Shown here: piece after piece, positions 3 through 11,832 of the stretch
Numbering within the stretch: position 1 is the stretch's first letter
Layout of the letters: each line of letters starts with the position of its first letter
Assembly: GCA_011364985.1 (NCBI GenBank)
Contig: RDOC01000001.1
Location: 422,630-471,486, forward strand
Reading direction: 5' to 3'
Length of the DNA: 48,857 nt
From: Candidatus Thorarchaeota archaeon
Lineage (GTDB): Archaea; Asgardarchaeota; Thorarchaeia; Thorarchaeales; Thorarchaeaceae
Notes under the pieces: model-generated
Told to the model about the DNA's origin: nothing
What the model saw: only the letters and a program-made list of their open reading frames with translations
Database searches by the model: none
Translations under genes and position numbers: made by a program

Positions 3-530
3 GTTTCCTCTAGAAAGAACACCCCGCTTGAAACTTCAGCAGGAATTGATGTGGTGTCAAATGAAATCGAGAAAATTGCCACAGATGACAGCACTAAGAT
101 ACTAACGGCATTGGATGACGAGAGCAATATGGTTGTTTGGATTAGCTACTATATTGGTTTTCCACTCATGGCCTTCATTGAGGGTTTTATGCCAGTAGTG
201 GATGAAGATTGTGATTCAGAAGAAATAGCAATGACCCTAATTGAAAAGGCATCACCGATTTTGGAAAAAAAGGGACAGGTAGTCGGATTTGCCATCACTC
301 GGTTGACAAACAATAAGGCAGAGATTGGCCCAGTTGGATTAGTTCCCGAGGAACGAGGAAAGGGACTAGCTAATTATCTCTTTGTGAATGCTCTTGAAGG
401 CGTGAAAGATGCCGGCATCAATACTGCATGCCTCGATGTGTCCATTGCCAATCACCCTGCCAGAAAACTGTACGAGAAGTACGGTTTCAAGAAAGCGTTT
501 AGCAAGCAGTTCTACTACTGGACGTCCTAG
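3..530 (+). CDS. GNAT-family N-acetyltransferase, 5'-truncated at window edge
   Basis: Frame open from base 3; acetyl-CoA motif VGLVPEERGKGLA and NHPARKLYEKYGF. Confidence 0.85.
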   Translation, partial: VSSRKNTPLETSAGIDVVSNEIEKIATDDSTKILTALDDESNMVVWISYYIGFPLMAFIEGFMPVVDEDCDSEEIAMTLIEKASPILEKKGQVVGFAITRLTNNKAEIGPVGLVPEERGKGLANYLFVNALEGVKDAGINTACLDVSIANHPARKLYEKYGFKKAFSKQFYYWTS

Positions 531-619
531 AGGAGGATTTTGAGGTCTTTCCTTTCGTATAACACATATCTTCGATGTACCCACTTGGTGACTTTGGGAT
601 TTTGTTTACGGAACTCATC
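531..619 (-). repeat. Highly degenerate copy of actin 3' end plus downstream hairpin (copy 5)
   Basis: Minus frame reads DEFRKQNPKVT vs actin [11 protein letters not shown]; aggaggattttgaggtctttcctttcg resembles aggagggcttcgcggcccaccttcg downstream of actin. Confidence 0.5.
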
Positions 620-672
620 ATTTTGGCATGTAAGCATGCCTTTTTCTCTCAACGCAAAATCTAAAAGCAAAT

Positions 673-704
673 GTTAGAAATATATAACGTTAGAAATATA
701 CAAC
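673..704 (+). promoter_or_regulatory. Tandem 16-bp operator-like repeat upstream of the membrane protein/XRE pair
   Basis: gttagaaatatataac followed directly by gttagaaatatacaac; each unit quasi-palindromic (GTTA-N8-TAAC/CAAC). Confidence 0.65.
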
Positions 705-708
705 ACTG

Positions 709-1053
709 GTGAGAAGCATGCAAATCAATCTAGTCAACTATCTTGGGTTTCTAGGGTTTCTTGGTCTACTAGGATTCGTAACTGGCAATGTTGGTTTTTT
801 GGGGTTTTTCGGGTTCTTCGGATTCCTAAGCATATTAGGAGGAAGGGGCTCTGATGAGCGAATTGAAAATAGCATAAATCGAGCATGCAGAAATGCCTAT
901 ATTGTGATTACTATTACCATGGTTTCTTCGCTGGTCTATGTTGTATCCTTTGATGCTATTCAGGCGTTTCCTTTGGTTTTCGCACTGCTTTTCATAGTTA
1001 GTATAATGGCCTTTGTGTTTTCATTCATTGTCTACAATCGACGTGGAGATTGA
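709..1053 (+). CDS. Small membrane protein, DUF3796-like
   Basis: [12 protein letters not shown]...GFFGFFGF repeats, DER motif, further hydrophobic helices; coupled to an XRE gene. Confidence 0.75.
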
Positions 1054-1256
1054 TTCATTTGATGACGACCAAGATGAAGAAGCTTCGTGAAGAGCATGGT
1101 TTGACACAGGAAGAGCTTGCTCGCATTGTAGGAGTGAGAAGAGAAACTATCATCTATCTGGAGAAGGGAAAATACAATCCCTCCCTCAAGCTAGCATACA
1201 AAGTTGCAAAGGCCTTGAAGAGCACAATAGAAGAGGTGTTTATTCTCAACAGTTGA
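1050..1256 (+). CDS. XRE/Cro-family HTH transcriptional regulator
   Basis: [38 protein letters not shown]. Confidence 0.92.
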
Positions 1257-1295
1257 GAAGCAGAGCGAAATCGCCAATCCCCTTGCCTTGTTGTA

Positions 1296-1421
1296 ATGAA
1301 TGATAATGAGCTTAATCGTCTCACCGAGGGGGAAGATACAGCTGTCAGCATCCAATGGATACTCCTTCATCTCGTAGAACACGAGGCGCTACATGTTGAC
1401 CAAGACGCTTTGCTTAAGTGA
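1296..1421 (+). pseudogene. DinB-family C-terminal remnant
   Basis: Manual translation MNDNELNRLTEGEDTAVSIQWILLHLVEHEALHVDQDALLK* carries the DinB-type W-x3-H-x3-H-E-x2-H-x2-Q helix; N-terminal part missing. Confidence 0.65.
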
Positions 1422-1505
1422 CTTCAGAGAAATGTGTGGATACAATGGAATCTGCATTTGCTGATATGCCAAGGAATAATAAACCTTTGAGATTTCTGGG
1501 TTCTA

Positions 1506-1958
1506 ATGACGAATGAGTGCTCAGATATCACTGTCTGTGGCCAACGGCTTTGCACCCAATGTGATTATCACAAAGGAACGATTGTTGACGCAGCGAAGAG
1601 ATTGCTTGAATTTGTGGAGAAATATCAATCACTTGGCCTCATAGTGAAGACGTCCACAGATTATGACTATGAGCAGTTCACGAAATTGACTCAATGGCTG
1701 GCAAGCCAAGACAAGCCCTGTAAGGGGTGCCGTCAAGGTGGAGGATGGTCATGGTGGCCAGATTGCCCCGTTCGAGATTGCTGTCTTTCGAAGGGTCTTG
1801 ACTTCTGTTTTCAATGTGATGAATTCCCGTGTAATAAATTGCTTGAGGGTCCACTGATCGAAAGAAGAAAAAGAATCATCAGAGTAAATGAACAAATCAA
1901 ATCTCTTGGAATGGATGAATGGCTTAAACGCCTTCATGAATTCTACCGTAAGCAATGA
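1506..1958 (+). CDS. Cys-rich putative metal-binding protein, DUF3795-like
   Basis: CGxxxCxxC, CxGC and C-x4-CC-x7-C-x2-C-x4-C pattern. Confidence 0.8.
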   Translation: MTNECSDITVCGQRLCTQCDYHKGTIVDAAKRLLEFVEKYQSLGLIVKTSTDYDYEQFTKLTQWLASQDKPCKGCRQGGGWSWWPDCPVRDCCLSKGLDFCFQCDEFPCNKLLEGPLIERRKRIIRVNEQIKSLGMDEWLKRLHEFYRKQ

Positions 1959-2008
1959 GTGTTGAAGATCAACAAAGCCATCTTGCAGTTGTTCCTCCAT
2001 CTTGCTTC

Positions 2009-2111
2009 GTGAAGAAAGGGGACACGAGTCTCGCCATCTGTCATATTATGAGAGCTGTAAGTCTTGGATGTGCTTGTCGATGACTTCGGAACTTTGTTCT
2101 TCGAAGTTCTT
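2009..2111 (-). repeat. Degenerate copy of actin 3' end (copy 4)
   Basis: 2058-2111 matches 9561-9614 at 39/54 nt ungapped; minus frame KNFEEQSSEVIDKHI vs actin [15 protein letters not shown]. Confidence 0.8.
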
Positions 2112-2349
2112 TGAATAGGCAGTCACTCTAAAGAAACACTAATTACAAGGACTAATTACTCCCTGGGATTTCCAGTGAATGATAATCAAAACTGAAAACA
2201 GCATCAAATCAATTGTTTTTCGCCTTTAATCACAAAGTATCTCATATCCTAGCAATCTTCTTCACATCAAAGACGTGTGCAATAGATTCAATACATATTC
2301 CAGTTCTCATTAGAGTGATAGGGGTGCATGCATCAAGTGGGGACTATAC

Positions 2350-3621
2350 TTGACTGATGAATCATACACCAAAGGAACAAACAGCAGCAAACTGGACCAG
2401 CTGAAGGAAGATGCCAATTCGAACGAAAAAGTGCTTTTCTTGCTAAATCGATACACAGGGCTGGCACCCTACTTCCACGAGTTTGTAATAGGAAACTTAG
2501 ACCCCCAGATCCTGTCAGGATTTGTCAGTGCAATGTCCAGTTTCCTAGCCGAGTTCTTGGGGTTACAACAGCCAAGTTGGAAGACGACTTACGGTCCAGA
2601 TTTGACGCTTATTGCAGAAGCAGGAGAATGGATGGTGGGTGTTCTTGCTGTCTCAGTAGAAACCACCGATCTCAGAAGTCGTCTAAGAAGGGTTGTCTAC
2701 GAATTTGAAGAAACGTTCGGAGCTCTGCGTGACAGTGATGGCTTTGAAGGCACCGCATTCAACCAGTTTGACGAATACGTTATGAAAGCTTTCATGTCAG
2801 ACAAAATTGCCCCTCAATCGCTTGTTGCAAGAAGGCCTAGATGGAAGGAATACATTCAGCCATCAAAGAGCCCGCAAGTGTCATTCACAACGAGAAAAAT
2901 GCTGCTTGGTCTTGAAGAGGAAACTACAGCTTCCAACATAGCATATGAAAACTTCATGCCATTTAGAACGGCACGCGAGTACATACTCAAGGCCTGTTGG
3001 CAGAACTTGGTTAGCATCAAGTATGTTCCCACTCAAGAAGACATCTTGGATATAACTGAAGAGATTCTGACAATTGCTCTCGATGGGACCAATCCCTTAG
3101 GACTATCTTCTGCAGTGACACGACTGATTGGCCAGCTGAATGGACGTGATTCTCTATCCAGATTCATCAGCCAGATTCCAGCGGAGTCGCGGAACTCTCT
3201 TCTAAGAGAGCTTGCCGATCTCAACCTCTTAGGATATGTTCACAGAATCACCGTAGAACGTGAACTGGTTCTACTTGAGGAGTGCATAATCTCAAGATTC
3301 ATGCAAGCATGTGCCGACATGATGGATGGGAAAGACCTTCATAGCATGATTGCTGAGACTATCGATGAAGCAGTAGACCACAAGCCTTGGCTATCGAGGA
3401 CTACGTTGCTCGATGATCTTTCGATTACTTGTGCTTTACACGGGCAGATGTATCCAAGAGATTTGGACCAGATGTTTGATGCGCTAGAGTATTTCTTGAA
3501 TAGGCTCATTGAGAGGATCAATCCTATGATTGGTCAAGATAATGTGGATGACCTGCTTCATTACGCACGAAAACACTGTCAGGAAGATTACATTCCCGGA
3601 ATTGCTCGTAGTGTGCTCTAG
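2350..3621 (+). CDS. Asgard longin-like domain protein with C-terminal helical/wHTH-like region
   Basis: N-terminal LFLLNRYTG...DPQILSGFVSAMSSF...LRRVVYEFEETF pattern typical of longin-like folds. Confidence 0.6.
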   Translation: MTDESYTKGTNSSKLDQLKEDANSNEKVLFLLNRYTGLAPYFHEFVIGNLDPQILSGFVSAMSSFLAEFLGLQQPSWKTTYGPDLTLIAEAGEWMVGVLAVSVETTDLRSRLRRVVYEFEETFGALRDSDGFEGTAFNQFDEYVMKAFMSDKIAPQSLVARRPRWKEYIQPSKSPQVSFTTRKMLLGLEEETTASNIAYENFMPFRTAREYILKACWQNLVSIKYVPTQEDILDITEEILTIALDGTNPLGLSSAVTRLIGQLNGRDSLSRFISQIPAESRNSLLRELADLNLLGYVHRITVERELVLLEECIISRFMQACADMMDGKDLHSMIAETIDEAVDHKPWLSRTTLLDDLSITCALHGQMYPRDLDQMFDALEYFLNRLIERINPMIGQDNVDDLLHYARKHCQEDYIPGIARSVL

Positions 3622-3711
3622 CAATTTGCTGGCAGTGCTGGCACACATAAATGAAAAGCCAACCTAGCCTGAGTCACACATACGGTTTCGATTTCATTTC
3701 TTTCCTTCCAA

Positions 3712-3822
3712 CTGACCCCAACTTCCAAACCGCTGTTGCCCTTAGAAGCATCTGTCGATGATGCCTGCCTCTATCCCTCGAACTTCTTGCATGAGAATCA
3801 GCATATTCCTGTTGTCAAAGTG
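3712..3822 (-). repeat. Degenerate copy of actin 3' end (copy 3)
   Basis: 3741-3761 vs 9566-9586 17/21 nt; 3778-3790 vs 9604-9616 11/13 nt with a 1-nt offset; minus reading ends AGIIDRCF*. Confidence 0.7.
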
Positions 3823-3984
3823 TCTGGTTGTCTATTTCTGTCAAACTTTAAGAAGGAATTCTTTCACTAGTAATTGAACATAGAGGGGTTTCATAAAATG
3901 GCGATTCGGCTATTGTGCGATTCTTCGTCAGTAATGATTGCAATCATGAAACACCTCACAGATAGACGGAGGCATAATCTGTAA

Positions 3985-5577
3985 ATGACCAATGAAATCC
4001 TAATCACTGAAGACCGAGCTGCTATGAGTCACTACCATAAGAACATATACTTGGGTTTCGTGTCTTGTATCCCAGATAGGTTAGTTTCTAGGAGTCTCTA
4101 TAGAAGATACTTCGTCCCTCAGGTTCCCGTAGATAACTGCGGTAATGCGCTCATGGCGCCGCTACCTTTGCGCGCCGTCGAATCGGCATTGATTAATGGA
4201 GGATTCAGCAGAACCCAGATTTCAGTAGTGAGGTCAGACTTTTTGGAATCAAGAATCAACGAGGATACAAAGATCGTGGCTCTATCGAGTCATGATCCCC
4301 TCGGTCTGGGCCCAGCAACCACAACATGGTCTACAATCTTCGGAGGAATCCCACACAATAGATGGGAGTTCCTTGAGCTTCTCTCAACATTGATAAGACT
4401 TAGGCAGAAGTACGATTTCAAAGTCATATTAGGAGGAACAGGCTCTTGGCAACTTATACAAGACAATCTGTATGAGAAATGCAAGATAGACTATGTCTTC
4501 GTAGGTGAATCAGAGAATGTCATTCCTGAACTCTTCAAATCCATCATTGATGGATCCTATGATGGTGAATCTATAATTCGGGGTCAAGTCGTACGTCCTG
4601 AGAAGATTCCCCCTATTCTGGCACCGACTAACTGGGGACTGGTTGAAATCTCCAGAGGCTGCGGAAGGGGCTGCATGTACTGCTCTCCTACAGTATCCGG
4701 CAAACTACGAAGTTTACCGATTGACACGATTTTGAGAAGCGTTGCCGTTAACTTGCAAGCTCCATGGAACAGGTCAAAATCCATTTTGTTGCATTCTGAG
4801 GACTTCTTCAGATATGAATCGGCTGATAGAGAGTATAGGGTAAATGCAGATGCCATCTTTGGATTGTACGATTCTCTCTTTGAATTAGGAGCAAGGCAAA
4901 TCTACATCACTCACGCATCATTTGCCAACTTTGTGAAGGATGAGGACTTCATTGTTGAGTTCACTAAATACCTGCGTAGTCATGGAATGACGAGCTATGG
5001 ATGTCAACCAGGGCTTGAAACCGGTAGCACTCGTATGATGAAGGCTATGATGGCGGGGAAAATGAAACCCTATACATCAGAGCAATGGCCTTGGATTGTC
5101 CATGAGGCGTCAAGAATAATGGACCAGAATAACTGGTACCCTGTTGCAACCTTGATCATGGGACTGCCCGGTGAGAGTCATGAGGACATAGCAGCGACGT
5201 ACCACCTAGTTGAAGATCTCCAATCCTACAAGGCATTATACATACCTCTCTTCTTTGTTCCAATGACGAAAACCCGCTTAGAAGGTAGGCAGCAGTTCAT
5301 TTCGGAAAACATGAGCATGGAGCATTGGAGACTAATGGAACTGTGCTGGAAGCACAACCTTGAACACATCTATGACCTCTACAGAGTGGTTGACACCGAA
5401 AGCCCGCATGCTCTGAAGATATTCTTGAAGACTGCAGTAAGTGCGCTCAAAGCCCTTTTCAGCATAAAGAGAAGTGGAACCCTATCCAATAGCCCAAGAG
5501 CTCCAAGACTAGAAGACCTTGGACATACAAGTCCGTTGGAAATGACATCGCTAGACGAGGCTCGCTTTGCTGTCTAA
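3985..5577 (+). CDS. B12-binding-domain radical SAM protein
   Basis: EISRGCGRGCMYC (CxxxCxxC), ILGG...GESE cobalamin-binding-like region, GLETGS and IMGLPGE motifs. Confidence 0.9.
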   Translation: MTNEILITEDRAAMSHYHKNIYLGFVSCIPDRLVSRSLYRRYFVPQVPVDNCGNALMAPLPLRAVESALINGGFSRTQISVVRSDFLESRINEDTKIVALSSHDPLGLGPATTTWSTIFGGIPHNRWEFLELLSTLIRLRQKYDFKVILGGTGSWQLIQDNLYEKCKIDYVFVGESENVIPELFKSIIDGSYDGESIIRGQVVRPEKIPPILAPTNWGLVEISRGCGRGCMYCSPTVSGKLRSLPIDTILRSVAVNLQAPWNRSKSILLHSEDFFRYESADREYRVNADAIFGLYDSLFELGARQIYITHASFANFVKDEDFIVEFTKYLRSHGMTSYGCQPGLETGSTRMMKAMMAGKMKPYTSEQWPWIVHEASRIMDQNNWYPVATLIMGLPGESHEDIAATYHLVEDLQSYKALYIPLFFVPMTKTRLEGRQQFISENMSMEHWRLMELCWKHNLEHIYDLYRVVDTESPHALKIFLKTAVSALKALFSIKRSGTLSNSPRAPRLEDLGHTSPLEMTSLDEARFAV

Positions 5578-5639
5578 TTTTCACCTCAACGATTCAATAT
5601 ATGGCCCAGGTTGTTCACAACAACTCCAAAGAGGAGCAA

Positions 5640-5730
5640 GTGAAGGGTGGCTCCGTAGCCCGCCTTGGAGACTGCTGTAGCAGGTCTTAGACATACCTGC
5701 GGATGACCTCAGGTTCTTGCACTTCAAAGT
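5640..5730 (-). repeat. Degenerate copy of actin 3' end plus downstream hairpin (copy 2)
   Basis: 5681-5730 vs 9561-9610 40/50 nt; 5640-5678 aligns to the hairpin region from 9522; minus frame FEVQEPEVIRRYV*. Confidence 0.92.
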
Positions 5731-5761
5731 TGAAATTCCTCTCAGTAAATCTAAAGTATAG

Positions 5762-6463
5762 GTGACCTATATTATTGAACCTAAGTTGAAAGATAGCGAA
5801 TTCTGGGATGAAATGGAACAATACTATGATGAGAGGGCGTCAGAGTATGATCATGTCTATTCAGGGGAAGGCCCTGCATTTCCTGATCAAAACGCATACA
5901 AAAAGGATGCAAGGCAAATCAGTAGCATGGCAGAGAGATTCGGTAGAGGTAGTCTAGTTGATATTGCCTGTGGAACAGGGTTCTGGTTTCCCCATTATTC
6001 AGCCAACTGTGATCGGGTTACACTTCTTGACCAATCGAAGAATATGCTAGCGTGTTGCAGAAAAAGAGCTGAGAAAACTGGTCTTTCTGACAAGTGCACT
6101 TTCATTCTAGGTGACTTTTTTGAAGCAAAACTCCAAAGCGACTCATTTGATAGCGCAGTGGTTGGATTCCTTCTCAGCCACCTCAATCCCAATTATGAAC
6201 TAATGCTATTTCAGATATTAAGTAGGATAATGAAACCTGATGCGGAACTTCTCATCATCGATTCTGCATGGAGTAAACAACGTAGCCTGCATCGTCAAAA
6301 GACAGGAATACAGAAACGAGTATTAAATGATGGAAGAGAGTTCTGCATTCCTAAAAGGTACTTCAGCAAGGAAGAAATCTACGAGTTGTTAAAGCGAAAT
6401 GATTTTCGTATTTCCGAGCTCTACTTTGGTAATGCGTTTCTAGCAGTGATTGCAGTCAGATGA
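5762..6463 (+). CDS. Class I SAM-dependent methyltransferase
   Basis: LVDIACGTG motif I, LDQSKNML, GDFF. Confidence 0.9.
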   Translation: MTYIIEPKLKDSEFWDEMEQYYDERASEYDHVYSGEGPAFPDQNAYKKDARQISSMAERFGRGSLVDIACGTGFWFPHYSANCDRVTLLDQSKNMLACCRKRAEKTGLSDKCTFILGDFFEAKLQSDSFDSAVVGFLLSHLNPNYELMLFQILSRIMKPDAELLIIDSAWSKQRSLHRQKTGIQKRVLNDGREFCIPKRYFSKEEIYELLKRNDFRISELYFGNAFLAVIAVR

Positions 6464-6740
6464 CTGTTGTTTTTTCCGCTAGATTACTCTACTTGACAAG
6501 CTTTGCCATGTGTATTCTTGACCGCAATTGGACACCAAAAGCTGCGATGAGTGGCGAAGGAGGATATGTTATAGGGTATGTCTGTGAAGATACAGAAACC
6601 AGATCCCAATCGACCTTCTCAATGAATGTCACGAAGGCTGAATGGAATACTGTGTAAACCGTGACTCCCTCCTGCAAAGTGATATCGAAACTGGTATTGG
6701 ACGGATGTGTGTTGCAGAAGGGCACTCCCTCCGACTTCAC

Positions 6741-8615
6741 CTATTTCTTCCGCATCGCAACAACAGTAACGATGACAACAACTATGGCAATAGCCCCACC
6801 TGCCATCAAGAGCAACTCTGTGGGCAGTTCATCTGTGGTGGTTGTCGTTGTCGTAGTGGCACTCGTAGTCGTTGTTGTCGTCGTGACTATCCTCTCGACA
6901 TTTGCGAAGAAGTCAATCTTCAGAGAGAAAGAGATATGGTCGTCAGCCACATACTCATTTAGTGTGAAGGGGCCTCCGGTTACAAAGGGATCATAACCAA
7001 GAACAGGATCATATCCATCTCCTGTGCTGGGGTTCACTGCATCAAGGGCTCCTTCTGGAAAGATGCTGATATAAGCAAACTCCACCAGCAGCCAGAAAGA
7101 GGGATCTTCCTCAACTTCTATCCATAACTGATATGTAGCAGGAACATGGACTGATACAGCAAGCGGATATTCGTCGCGATCCGTGGCTGCATAGAAAGTT
7201 TCGATACTGTCAGCGGCATCAAGGGCAGTGATAGGACTACCGTCGGACCATGTCATTCCCTCTCGAATGCTGAAATGTATTCGCGTACGACCTACTGGAA
7301 CATCCCCGTTGTCATCATGGGTTTCCATCGTATACCCCGCAGCAAGCCAGGGGATTAGATTGCCATTCGTGTCAAGGTTCAAGAGTGGAAGCATGGTATG
7401 GCTCAGCACTCGCTTCTCTGCTCTGTCCGCCCGCCAGTAGGTGAAGGTACTTAGGTCTTCATCAATTCCAATCCGCAACGTCCCTCCAAACGGTCCTCCG
7501 GCAGTTGCTCGCAGTCTCGCGAGGTAGGTCCCCCATGGGAAGTGATATCCCCATGAAGATGTTGGGTCAGGGCGATATTCCTCGAAGCGGTCAGTCCTGA
7601 AAGCATATTTCTCTGTGGTACAGCCCACTGGTATGACAGGGCACTGCTCCAGTATTATCTCCTCCATTGATTTCACGACTGCACTGGCTTCCGCGAATGT
7701 TTCTGCTGATTCCAGCTCATCACATAACGAATCGTAGGTGGAATTGGTGAAATGCGGCCAGTTGTTCATAGAGAATCGTGAATCAAACTTCTTCAACTCC
7801 CTTCGTACATCATAGTACCAAGCGTATGTTAGAGAGTGGTGGAGAAAAGCGATGTCATAATCTGCTCCAGCCATCACCCGGGATCCTATGTCTTCGATTG
7901 GTGTGATTACGACGCTTCCATTTATTGAGATAGCATCCAAGGCATTGGCAAGAATCTGGGCGAAGTTTCCAAAGTAAATTCCTTGATCAGCAACCTCAAT
8001 CAGGACAGTTAGTGTATCCCCATTTGGTGCCTCTCGATGAGCGTTTCCTGAAACATCATCAAATCCCTCTTCATCAAGGATATTATTGGCTAGGATAATG
8101 CTTTCGTCATAGTAGACACCTCCCAAGTCTTCCTCTGCGGAAAAGGGAAGTGATGCAGGGAGAAATGTGTCTTGATGCTGGTAGGGGGTGGCCAACCAGG
8201 GGTTTGTCATGGTTGCTGCTGCTGCTACCTTATCTAGGGCCAAAGCAAAAGCTCTGCGGAAACCAGCTATGGTGAAGGGATATTTGTCACAGTTGACATA
8301 TAGAACACCCAACCCACTACCAAGGACTGTTTTCACCGTCACATCAGGGTCGTCTTCAAATGCAACATAGTAATCGTCTACTGACACGCCAATTAGGTCT
8401 ATCTCATTGTTCAGGAGCGCCTGGACTCGACCCCAATCAGAAGAGATGACTCTGTAGTTGATATTGTCCACATAACCCCCTTCTGTTTGACTTGAAAGTG
8501 TATAGTTAGCATCATTATGAAACGAATATCCCTCAATCGCGTTCTGCGGGCCCACGCCCACAAGGAGCAGTAGAACAGCCCCCATTGTTAAATAGACTTG
8601 TATGTTTTTCTTCAC
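6741..8615 (-). CDS. ABC peptide/nickel-type (family 5) substrate-binding protein, circularly permuted, with Thr-rich linker and C-terminal membrane anchor
   Basis: Signal peptide; FRRAFALALDK; GGTLRIG; REGMTWSDGSPITALD; TGGPFTL; poly-Thr, TM helix, RKK. Confidence 0.88.
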   Translation of the reverse strand: MKKNIQVYLTMGAVLLLLVGVGPQNAIEGYSFHNDANYTLSSQTEGGYVDNINYRVISSDWGRVQALLNNEIDLIGVSVDDYYVAFEDDPDVTVKTVLGSGLGVLYVNCDKYPFTIAGFRRAFALALDKVAAAATMTNPWLATPYQHQDTFLPASLPFSAEEDLGGVYYDESIILANNILDEEGFDDVSGNAHREAPNGDTLTVLIEVADQGIYFGNFAQILANALDAISINGSVVITPIEDIGSRVMAGADYDIAFLHHSLTYAWYYDVRRELKKFDSRFSMNNWPHFTNSTYDSLCDELESAETFAEASAVVKSMEEIILEQCPVIPVGCTTEKYAFRTDRFEEYRPDPTSSWGYHFPWGTYLARLRATAGGPFGGTLRIGIDEDLSTFTYWRADRAEKRVLSHTMLPLLNLDTNGNLIPWLAAGYTMETHDDNGDVPVGRTRIHFSIREGMTWSDGSPITALDAADSIETFYAATDRDEYPLAVSVHVPATYQLWIEVEEDPSFWLLVEFAYISIFPEGALDAVNPSTGDGYDPVLGYDPFVTGGPFTLNEYVADDHISFSLKIDFFANVERIVTTTTTTTSATTTTTTTTDELPTELLLMAGGAIAIVVVIVTVVAMRKK

Positions 8616-8682
8616 GTCTTTCCCTCAATTACACTGCTTTTGTTTGTGTTGCCCCCATTGTATAGTGCGGCTCTAAGCTAAA

Positions 8683-9405
8683 TTACTCTGGGGTCACTCT
8701 TGCAAGTATGTTCTCCCTTATCAATCTTAGTTCGCCACGGACATCTCTCTGGATATGCATATCAGGTCCTAGGTACACCTGTAGATGACTTCGGGTCCCT
8801 GCTCTTCGAACTCCTTTCTTTAGCGCAAGTTTAATCCTGATTCCGTAAAATGTGAAAATGGAGAACAAAGCAGGGCATGAGAGCATTATAAGTCCTCCTG
8901 TCCCAAGAAGCATCAGAACTCGTGACAGGACAAAGAAATCTTCAATGTCGTATACAAGGAATGATACTATTAAGGCAATGATTGCAGCCAGCCACGCAAC
9001 AAGTGTGATTCTAGCCTTCAGTACTGGTTCAAGTTTTTCAATGTCTGCGCTAATCTCAAGATCTGTTCTCTTGAAGAGGAAATCCTGAAAATGTCGTAGT
9101 CTTCTATGAATTGTATATGCAAGTGGGAGAGGTGCAACAATTACCAGAGATAGGAAGCTGAATGCCAAAACGGGATCTCTATCAATGATTGTCAAGAAGC
9201 TGATGATAAGACTTGTACAAATGCCCCCTATGGCTGAAATTTGAATTATTATCTCGGTCAAGGTGGCATGGCGAATGAAAAAGATCACCAGTGTCTTTTC
9301 AGTACTTCTTGATTCTGCTTGACTCTCTAGCATGAGGTACAAGGAAAATCCGAAGAAGCATGATACAAGTCCGCCAGCAAAAACTAATACTCCACCATCC
9401 AACAC
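8683..9405 (-). CDS. Hypothetical multi-pass membrane protein; 3' end reads through an actin-derived repeat
   Basis: Five to six hydrophobic segments; no recognised motif. Confidence 0.6.
   Translation of the reverse strand: MLDGGVLVFAGGLVSCFFGFSLYLMLESQAESRSTEKTLVIFFIRHATLTEIIIQISAIGGICTSLIISFLTIIDRDPVLAFSFLSLVIVAPLPLAYTIHRRLRHFQDFLFKRTDLEISADIEKLEPVLKARITLVAWLAAIIALIVSFLVYDIEDFFVLSRVLMLLGTGGLIMLSCPALFSIFTFYGIRIKLALKKGVRRAGTRSHLQVYLGPDMHIQRDVRGELRLIRENILARVTPE
8763..8816 (-). repeat. Near-identical copy of actin 3' end (copy 1, att-like direct repeat)
   Basis: 50/54 nt identical to 9561-9614; minus frame (R)[15 protein letters not shown] vs actin [16 protein letters not shown]. Confidence 0.97.
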
Positions 9406-9523
9406 AGTATTTCCTCAGTCCTCTGTTGAACCTGCCAAGTTAATGAATTCTTCCTATGCTAATAATTCTGTAACAATGTTGTTCACTTCATTGAATTTTG
9501 AAATGCAGGAAAAATAGAGGTGT

Positions 9524-9549
9524 GAAGGAGGGCTTCGCGGCCCACCTTC
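9524..9549 (-). terminator. Hairpin just downstream of the actin stop codon
   Basis: gaaggagggc-ttcgcg-gcccaccttc inverted repeat; T-rich run follows on the minus strand. Confidence 0.55.
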
Positions 9550-9566
9550 GAAACTACGGTCAGGTC

Positions 9567-10706
9567 TTAGATACACCTGTGGATGACTTCGGGTCCCTGC
9601 TCTTCGAATTCCTTGCGGCTCACCCACATCTTCTGGAAGGTCTTAAGTGAGGCAAGAATGGAACCGCCGATCCAGACAGAGTACTGTCTCTCGGGTGGAG
9701 CAATGATGCGGACCTCGATGTTCTCTGGAACTAGTTCGGTGATCTCCTTATGGAGTCGCTCCTTGAGTCCTGGGAACATAGTCGAACCACCGGACAACAC
9801 AACGTTGGCATAGAGGTCACGTCGTAGGTCGACGTCACACGCCTTGATTGACTCAACAATGTGGTCGTCGAGTGGCTGGGTGTCAAGACCAATAGCGCTT
9901 GGATTAAAGAATAGCTCAGGAGCCTGGAACCTCTCTGCACCAACAGTGATTACCTCACCGTCTGGAAGCATGTAAGGCTTGTCGACACCAGCCTTGTCAG
10001 CGACTGTTCTCTCCCTCTCAGGATCAAGGGCTACGTAGCACAGCTTCTCCTTGACGTCTCTGACGATTTCCTTCTCAGCACCGCTCACGAAGGAATAGCC
10101 TCTCTGCCTGAGCAATCTGCGCAGGTACTCGGTGATGTCACGGCCTGCAAGATCAATTCTTCGGATAGCATGGGAAATAGCGAAACCCTCGTAGATTGGC
10201 ACGATGTGAGTCACACCATCACCAGAGTCTATGACAAGTCCCGTCGTTCTTCCGGATGCGTACAGCGAGAGTACTGCCTGAGTTGCAACGTATACTGCTG
10301 GTACACCGAAGTTGTCAAACATGACAGATGCCATGCGCTCTCTGTTCTCACGAGGATTGAACGGTGCCTCGGTGAGGAGAACAGGATTCTCGCTGGGATC
10401 CACCTTAAGATCGTTGTAGAAAGTGTAACTCCAGATCTTCTCAATTGCATCCCAGTCGTCAATTACACCGTGGGTGATTGGATAGACTAGTCGCAGTACA
10501 CCACGCAGGTTGATGGCTTCCTCACCGATGTAGTAGTCCCTCGTATAGTGGTCGACATCAGTCATGATCGACTCGTAACGTGGATATCCAATCAGTGTGG
10601 GCCAGACACTCCGTGGCTGATCTTCGCCGGCATAACCGTTTTTGCTTAGCCCAGTACCGTTGTCAATAACGATGGGCTTTGCACCAAGAAACTCGTCTTC
10701 AGCCAT
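9567..10706 (-). CDS. Actin (conserved Asgard Lokiactin type)
   Basis: [60 protein letters not shown]; 379 aa. Confidence 0.98.
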
Positions 10707-10992: not shown

Positions 10993-11832
10993 TTGGCGAA
11001 CGTAATGTTCTGGAAGACTGCAGACCAAGTTATTCAAGAGGAAGTCGAGAGTGTGCGTCCCCGAAAAGTCATTTTGGACCAGCTTGAGGGAGGCACCAAG
11101 ACAGGCAAGGAGCTACGGGATGCTATTCAAACAGATATGTTTGCTCAAGCCCTCCGAGAAGGAATGGAAGGAATGGCGCCTTCAGATTTCACTGTCACGG
11201 ACCCGAAGCTTTACTTCAATACCAAGTATCTTGAGGAGGCGGGCATCATCACAAGCAGGAAGGATTCCAGAGAGAGGCAGTTCGGCTTGACACCCTGGGC
11301 GATTCAACCTGTTCGTCGTGCACTCGGAGTAAAGAGACCAATTTTACTCCTCACCTCTATGTCTCACCCCGAGGACCAGCGACCCTTCGTATCGTGGATT
11401 TCATACCAGACAGAATTCGACATTGTACGTCTACGCATCCTTGTTGCAGATGGAACATTCAGAAGAGGAGCGTCTAGGAACCTGACGCGTCATGTGCCTG
11501 CAGAGATTGATGAAAAAGGAGACAGTGATTCGTCATACAGAAGAACATACCTTGAGAAGCTTCTTGACAATCCATGGGAGGACCTTCCTCTGGAAACAGT
11601 AGGGGACTTCGATACAAGCATCCCTGGGGACTTGATGGCCACTTATGGGAAGATTGAAGCGATTATCCAAAACAACCTTCCCGAATACGAAGTGGTCGTG
11701 GACCTATCAACAGGACCACCTCTCATACCAACTGCACTGACTCTTGTAGCAATGAACTACTCCCTCACGGCAATCTTCATCCGTCACCAAGGAGGGGCAT
11801 CCACAGTCACACGGGTCCTGCCAAGAGAGTGA
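10993..11832 (+). CDS. Winged-helix regulator with C-terminal CARF-like Rossmann domain
   Basis: N-terminal wHTH (LYFNTKYLEEAGIITSRK); C-terminal VVVDLSTGPPLIPTAL resembles the CARF D-x-[ST]-G motif. Confidence 0.55.
   Translation: MANVMFWKTADQVIQEEVESVRPRKVILDQLEGGTKTGKELRDAIQTDMFAQALREGMEGMAPSDFTVTDPKLYFNTKYLEEAGIITSRKDSRERQFGLTPWAIQPVRRALGVKRPILLLTSMSHPEDQRPFVSWISYQTEFDIVRLRILVADGTFRRGASRNLTRHVPAEIDEKGDSDSSYRRTYLEKLLDNPWEDLPLETVGDFDTSIPGDLMATYGKIEAIIQNNLPEYEVVVDLSTGPPLIPTALTLVAMNYSLTAIFIRHQGGASTVTRVLPRE

Follow-up and report, generated by a model that had tools for sequence, protein, structure and literature searches.

The actin gene of a Candidatus Thorarchaeota archaeon is followed by a series of decaying fragments of its own 3' end, with unrelated genes lying between them, which raises the question of how the tail of a conserved gene came to be copied repeatedly and to hold other genes apart. 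We analyzed the stretch of 48,857 nucleotides that contains this locus (the window), which belongs to a 1.7-Mb metagenome assembly that is 74% complete and has a scaffold gap adjoining the window. An earlier note, made from the sequence alone, had read the fragments as the work of a mobile-element family using actin as its attachment site (attB).

The array in the window

The displaced actin-tail array is real, and comprises the following features, listed from the actin gene outward:

9567..10706, minus strand: actin gene (379 aa; PF00022, E 2e-133), anchor of the array; its final ~50-60 nt are the duplicated segment
9524..9549, minus strand: hairpin directly past the actin stop, mostly carried along with the copies
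8683..9405, minus strand: module 1, membrane protein ORF (240 aa), within which copy 1 (at 8763) is read in a different frame
8762..8818, minus strand: copy 1 of the actin tail, -50 to +7 relative to the stop, without the hairpin
6741..8615, minus strand: module 2a, family 5 solute-binding protein (624 aa; SBP_bac_5, Pfam)
5762..6463, plus strand: module 2b, SAM methyltransferase (Pfam)
5628..5730, minus strand: copy 2, actin tail with hairpin, -44 to +55 (89 nt at 76%)
3985..5577, plus strand: module 3, radical SAM protein (530 aa; Pfam)
3717..3808, minus strand: copy 3, decayed (core 3741-3790)
2350..3621, plus strand: module 4, 423-aa protein, no Pfam match
2009..2111, minus strand: copy 4 with decayed hairpin (core 2058-2111, 39/54)
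1506..1958, plus strand: module 5, DUF3795 protein (Pfam)
1239..1427, plus strand: DinB-family remnant of ~63 codons (BLAST); the gene is common in actin arrays
709..1256, plus strand: DUF3796 and XRE pair (Pfam)
517..618, minus strand: copy 5, heavily decayed (p=0.013), backed mainly by synteny with copy 3 of L034
1..530, plus strand: 3' part of a GNAT gene (Pfam), of a family frequent in actin arrays; the scaffold gap lies directly to its left

The anchoring actin is 93-99% identical to named Thorarchaeota actin records. An ungapped scan of the 1.7-Mb genome on both strands with the 54-nt actin end gave 50/54 at 8763, 40/54 at 5681 and 39/54 at 2058, which reproduces exactly the same-orientation repeats counted earlier. 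The best match elsewhere in the genome was 31/54. In gapped alignments against 1000 shuffles each, the regions 8762-8818, 5628-5730, 3717-3808 (previously seen as two blocks at about 3741-3790) and 2009-2128 all gave p<0.001, and 517-618 reached only p=0.013. A profile of Thorarchaeota actin ends ranked the four stronger copies straight after actin genome-wide (E 4.6e-11, 2.8e-5, 0.026 and 0.052) and missed the weakest. This weak fifth copy, which the earlier note had placed at about 570-619, is supported by synteny with a copy in the relative L034, whose XRE and DUF3796 module aligns to the window as far as, and into, its own closing copy at the position of 517-618. A sixth copy between the solute-binding protein and methyltransferase genes was not detectable by gapped alignment against shuffles (p=0.89). 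Setting aside apparent paralogues, one IS pair and one artefact at a gap, no other gene in the genome has its 3' end duplicated in isolation with a match of at least 30/42. The hairpin after the actin stop is part of most copies; its fold z-score is only -0.94, and its support comes from its recurrence in relatives.

Pfam bears out the module contents read earlier as GNAT, DUF3796, XRE, DUF3795, radical SAM, methyltransferase and SBP_bac_5, and BLAST confirms the DinB remnant; a protein described as longin-like has no Pfam match, and that label is unconfirmed. The scaffold gap immediately left of the window (C11:422532-422629) interrupts the GNAT gene, and beyond it lie genes that close the array in relatives (a 4Fe-4S protein, a DNA methylase and, by eye, a gelsolin-like gene). 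Upstream of actin, a conserved gene without a Pfam match (10993-11832), in which an HTH followed by a CARF-like motif can be seen by eye, has genes with an RNase III domain and an HD domain as neighbors.

Repeats in a metagenome assembly of 74% completeness, with a scaffold gap beside them, could also stem from local duplication, chance or misassembly. The copies are 60-93% identical to actin and none is identical. Misassembly is unlikely because a single contig of an independent assembly, possibly of the source run, spans 2670-8937 without joints. Dozens of genomes moreover show the pattern, with junctions in common; the comparative data refute this explanation, to which we assign almost no probability. 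Excision joints were not found in the contigs of two runs, contigs being assemblies that drop rare variants.

Breadth of the array and exchange of its modules

The array is lineage-wide in Thorarchaeota. When about 60 actin loci were each scanned with their own tail, 40 same-strand copies were found in 450 kb downstream of actin, none in 432 kb upstream, and none in inverted orientation; a profile search returned 49 copies at E<0.01 with the same asymmetry. The duplication is specific to actin, with a copy within 5 kb of 22/54 actin ends as against 0/792 other gene ends at the same loci. Metagenome contigs supply further arrays of up to five copies. No copies were found 10-30 kb downstream in 14 extended regions, nor to the left of the window. 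Gene order upstream of actin is fixed (0/143 family pairs occur in both orders) as against a variable order downstream (36/320 pairs, some of which may be paralogues), and it is the downstream side that carries the copies. Two further loci contain unusual actin-related sequence. At L068 a second, divergent actin-like gene of 373 aa (6831-7949) is itself cargo within the array, and a copy 3634 nt past the actin stop resembles a longer (~30 codons), more divergent actin tail. At L074/L075, about 540-620 nt past the actin stop, a GNAT ORF ends E-F-D-C-I-stop, by eye a shortened actin-tail copy reused as its end.

The modules consist of one to four genes and are mostly 0.3-4.5 kb long; their 122 ORFs fall into 77 families, whose representatives have mixed orientation (41 against actin, 36 with it). 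Among the cargo are GNATs, DinB proteins, a nitroreductase, methyltransferases, DUF433/DUF5615 pairs and HepT/nucleotidyltransferase pairs. Modules retain their junctions yet switch slot between genomes: the nitroreductase module, for example, is in slot 1 of L106 and in slot 2 of L080 (91% along its whole length). A filled/empty pair is seen in L325 and L323: from its first copy onward, L325 corresponds to L323 as read from the actin end onward (86%). A second candidate, L333 as the empty allele of L331, was rejected, as L333 has a scaffold gap at that place. Some modules came in with a foreign actin tail, and some cargo has homologues in relatives' chromosomes away from actin.

The modules of the window take part in this exchange. 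The module 2b methyltransferase is a stand-alone module in L033 (73% nucleotide identity, same junction), a related gene occupies slot 1 of L335, and the DUF3796 and XRE pair stands alone in L034/L325 and L323 (75-76%). A homologue of module 1 in G001 (55%) lies behind a translation-factor-like gene, not actin, and homologues of module 4 (23-45%) lie away from actin in 4/5 same-genus genomes; the module 3 radical SAM protein was not found in five same-genus genomes at E 1e-20. Together, the comparative data support what had been proposed as serial insertion at the actin 3' end, in which the gene stays intact, its tail is displaced and a variable gene-capture array grows behind it. The accompanying claim that similarity falls with distance holds as a trend within arrays (the nearer copy is more alike in 21/31 within-array pairs), with no correlation across arrays. 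The array can be called chronological only loosely, as modules occur in both orders across genomes.

Copy edges, replaced tails and candidate enzymes

The edges of the copies bear on how the tail is displaced. Counted from the end of the stop codon, 17/41 well-kept copies start at -50 to -53 and most others are shorter; over the 41 the edge ranges from -35 to -66 with a mode of about -52, one call at -116 being spurious. Copies never exceed ~66 nt of the 1140-nt actin gene. The working gene itself carries short foreign tracts at its end. From -88 onward the actins of L074 and L077 differ at 18 sites, as against 98% similarity upstream, and comparable tracts begin at -73 in L058/L071, at -112 in L067/L085 and at -55 in L062/L063. 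The replaced tracts measure 55-112 nt and start upstream of the copy edges. Each of the three copies in L084 is closer to alleles from other genomes than to the L084 tail, and a foreign, synonymously recoded tail in the working gene combined with a displaced native tail was seen in several relatives. The most divergent 7-codon window of actin starts at -57, where the copies begin (2.66 versus a median of 1.06, over 89 close allele pairs that are not independent). Copy mismatches amount to 30% at third codon positions versus ~10% at first and second positions, an excess expected in part from later synonymous drift of the working gene. Foreign tail tracts and copy edges therefore indicate that insertion replaces the tail, with a break or crossover near -50 to -60.

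Close to this region, 63 nt before the stop, the actin genes of L071, L084, L085, L086, L027 and L158 carry a 30-nt insert with a stop codon. The insert has bulge-helix-bulge geometry with a 4-bp helix that shows a compensatory change in L071, and cutting at the bulges restores the protein; judged from sequence, it is likely to be a tRNA-type intron in the actin mRNA. It is absent from the actin of the window. Two more 30-nt hairpin inserts, at actin codons ~10 and ~101, occur in L184, L192, L196 and L222; one is in frame without a stop, the other has two stops, and both are probably introns of the same kind. We dropped the idea that the mini-intron shields the insertion site, since L084 and L085 have both the intron at -63 and copies.

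We favor, at slightly better than even confidence, repair of double-strand breaks as the cause of tail displacement; a homing endonuclease that is now absent here probably seeded the process, and homologous recombination with the copies as second arm would then have spread it. Incoming DNA from a relative would bring a stretch of actin together with a tail and hairpin, plus one to four accessory genes. The resident actin would be broken ~50-60 nt before its stop, and its left end would be repaired on the incoming actin homology, yielding a working new tail with new genes behind it. The right end, made up of the old tail, the hairpin and everything downstream, would be trimmed variably and rejoined behind the new genes as a copy. 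A module ending in a copy could then be added before any relative's array, lost or moved via ordinary homologous recombination with actin and copy as arms, and an integrase would be unnecessary once the donor's own copy gives homology for both ends. Archaea can recombine over a few tens of bases. Several observations count against this reading: the first copy of L062 has the alleles of its working gene, not those of the relative; actins with the mini-intron at -63 (L084, L085) still carry copies; and the searches described below found no endonuclease gene behind actin in Thorarchaeota.

The narrow modal edge also fits a site-specific recombinase. Such an enzyme could act in trans from an unsampled virus or integrative element with the actin 3' end as attB, the modules being integrase-less satellites or remnants that accumulated in tandem; the geometry is that of tRNA- or icd-type attL/attR sites, 17/41 edges cluster at -50 to -53, the replaced tracts are short (55-112 nt) and the modules behave as units. 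However, the scatter of the edges from -35 to -66 and the start of the foreign tracts upstream of them argue against it, as does the search for the enzyme. No tyrosine, serine or SSV-type recombinase and no Cas1 was found in or linked to any module, a search that covered the 122 module ORFs and flanking DNA to a distance of 10-30 kb; one integrase does lie 14 kb from actin, but no copy brackets it. For tyrosine recombinases we used PF00589 and a profile from 22 Asgard integrases. PF00589 occurs in 9/23 genomes of the family and was not found in the present, 74% complete genome, in line with the earlier note, which had seen no recombinase in the window; PF07508 occurs in 3/60 and PF16795 in 0/85 family genomes, and Cas1 in 0/16 genomes of the genus. 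Terminal inverted repeats at module ends score the same as the control, and no conserved arm is present at the junctions. Viral contigs, a set that may include few Thorarchaeota viruses, contained no actin, actin-tail pattern or match to the f12 enzyme described below, and Rfam gave no match. An integrase-bearing element family with actin as attB is thus not upheld, no recombinase having been found in the modules or bracketed by copies and the copy edges being variable, and we regard a recombinase in trans as unlikely. G043, which belongs to a different Asgard family, has a gene for a XerA-like recombinase (L159:9573-10490) facing actin tail to tail, and this locus has no copies.

The one candidate DNA-cutting gene tied to an array of this kind lies outside Thorarchaeota. 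Among 26 further actin loci from other lineages, one, of the Asgard family f12, has five copies in 10 kb, and the first gene of this array is a 377-aa ORF with two LAGLIDADG-like motifs. An ORF of 377-395 aa follows actin at six f12 loci (G144, G276, G133, G139 and two more assemblies); at the three examined, copies follow the ORF and start at about -33 to -62. The protein has no Pfam name. Its structural model (pLDDT 85) matches almost only LAGLIDADG endonucleases (I-AniI, I-WcaI and I-Tsp061I) at modest E values (top 7e-4), and by this prediction the slot-1 gene, at L283:1515-2648, is of LAGLIDADG fold. A third Asgard family has a 491-aa slot-1 ORF with similar motifs and a weak match (probability 28%).

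Within Thorarchaeota, the f12 protein and a 58-sequence family profile had no match in 85 genomes or 78 actin loci, and no endonuclease gene or remnant lies behind actin in the 78 distinct loci (607 kb); other Thorarchaeota LAGLIDADG genes had no match behind actin either. These other genes are mostly in long, probably intein-bearing ORFs, the free-standing ones apparently beside rRNA or ribosomal-protein genes. At L254-L261 free-standing genes of 220-280 aa, several apparently by rRNA, include three loci with short direct repeats downstream. The genome of the window has a 364-aa LAGLIDADG-like ORF (C18:13703-14794) and a remnant (C11:30947-31216) adjoining a carboxyltransferase-like gene; this group sits upstream of conserved genes in relatives.

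The lack of a motor gene in the Thorarchaeota searched would suit a process with no dedicated enzyme, namely homology-facilitated illegitimate recombination: foreign DNA is anchored through the conserved actin and joined illegitimately at its far end, after which ordinary recombination spreads and shuffles the modules. The edges are indeed variable and module-specific, cargo homologues occur elsewhere in relatives' chromosomes, and such a process has been put forward to explain the immunity arrays of Vibrio T6SS and the Rhs orphans (PMC5361080). However, it leaves unexplained the ~66-nt ceiling in a 1140-nt gene, the peak at -52, the 0/792 at neighboring conserved genes and the slot-1 endonuclease gene of sister lineages, and we give it little weight. 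In the break-repair reading, the slot-1 gene of the sister lineage and the narrow ceiling on copy length point to an initiating nuclease. What we infer is an initiating break, a homing endonuclease that made the break, and the loss, rarity or action in trans of that enzyme in Thorarchaeota, together with the way DNA passes between cells and the way new cargo first joins a tail.

Related systems and meaning

In fungal mitochondria, mobile endonuclease ORFs (mORFs) comprise a foreign C-terminus in a gene, an endonuclease and the displaced native C-terminus, as in Allomyces macrogynus atp6 and Glomus atp6, atp9, cox2 and nad3 (PMC3630166). As in mORFs, the 3' end of a conserved gene is here exchanged for a foreign one, the native end moves downstream and the differences are largely synonymous; in f12 the LAGLIDADG-fold gene predicted from the model even has the same slot. 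The actin array differs from mORFs in the many repeats of the event, in inserts that are cassettes of accessory genes and in its archaeal host, and the endonuclease gene behind the new tail, present in f12, was not found in 78 Thorarchaeota loci or 85 genomes.

Integrative elements are known at gene 3' ends, such as tRNA islands, e14 in icd, SCCmec in rlmH and ICESt/CIMEs in fda. The array resembles tandem islands of this kind in that the target gene is restored, its 3' fragment is displaced to the far end and growth proceeds serially from the anchor; it differs in that its modules are mostly 0.3-4.5 kb, without an integrase or remnant of one, and have a variable 5' edge and no element ends. 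With integrons and CALINs, including archaeal ones (PMC9668308), it shares small swappable cassettes, addition at one end and shuffled order, as well as toxin-antitoxin pairs, GNATs, methyltransferases and DinB among the cargo. Unlike theirs, its repeat is a fragment of protein-coding sequence instead of attC, and cargo lies in both orientations (41 versus 36). IntI was not found, and no attC sites were seen on inspection (made without an attC model), the boundary being actin coding sequence plus the 3' hairpin. Casposons differ from the array in their Cas1 casposase (0/16 in the genus) and terminal inverted repeats. In Vibrio T6SS immunity and Rhs/CDI orphan-tip arrays, as here, DNA inserts next to a conserved gene through homology and older DNA is pushed away from that gene, and later movement is by homologous recombination with no integrase known (PMC5361080). 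There, however, the part that is swapped, the tip, is variable and under selection, whereas the tail of the actin protein remains unchanged and the cargo has no relation to the anchor gene. The actin array works like mORF tail swapping and Rhs/T6SS arrays, looks like tandem islands and integrons, and departs from each of them in a defining feature.

Our literature search found no description of an actin-anchored array. We tentatively suggest, at somewhat less than even confidence, that Asgard archaea possess an integrase-free, integron-like capture platform, in which homing endonucleases attack the tails of essential genes such as actin and the displaced tails serve as permanent recombination handles for cassette exchange after the enzyme has gone. 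The array points to an integrase-free route to cassette arrays and connects tail swapping of the fungal mORF type with the growth of prokaryotic genomic islands. Island finders centered on integrases will overlook actin arrays, and phylogenies at the allele level need to allow for possible mosaicism in the final ~20 codons of Asgard actin. For the Thorarchaeota, the finding is of a lineage-wide gene-acquisition hotspot on actin, in close prokaryotic relatives of eukaryotes.
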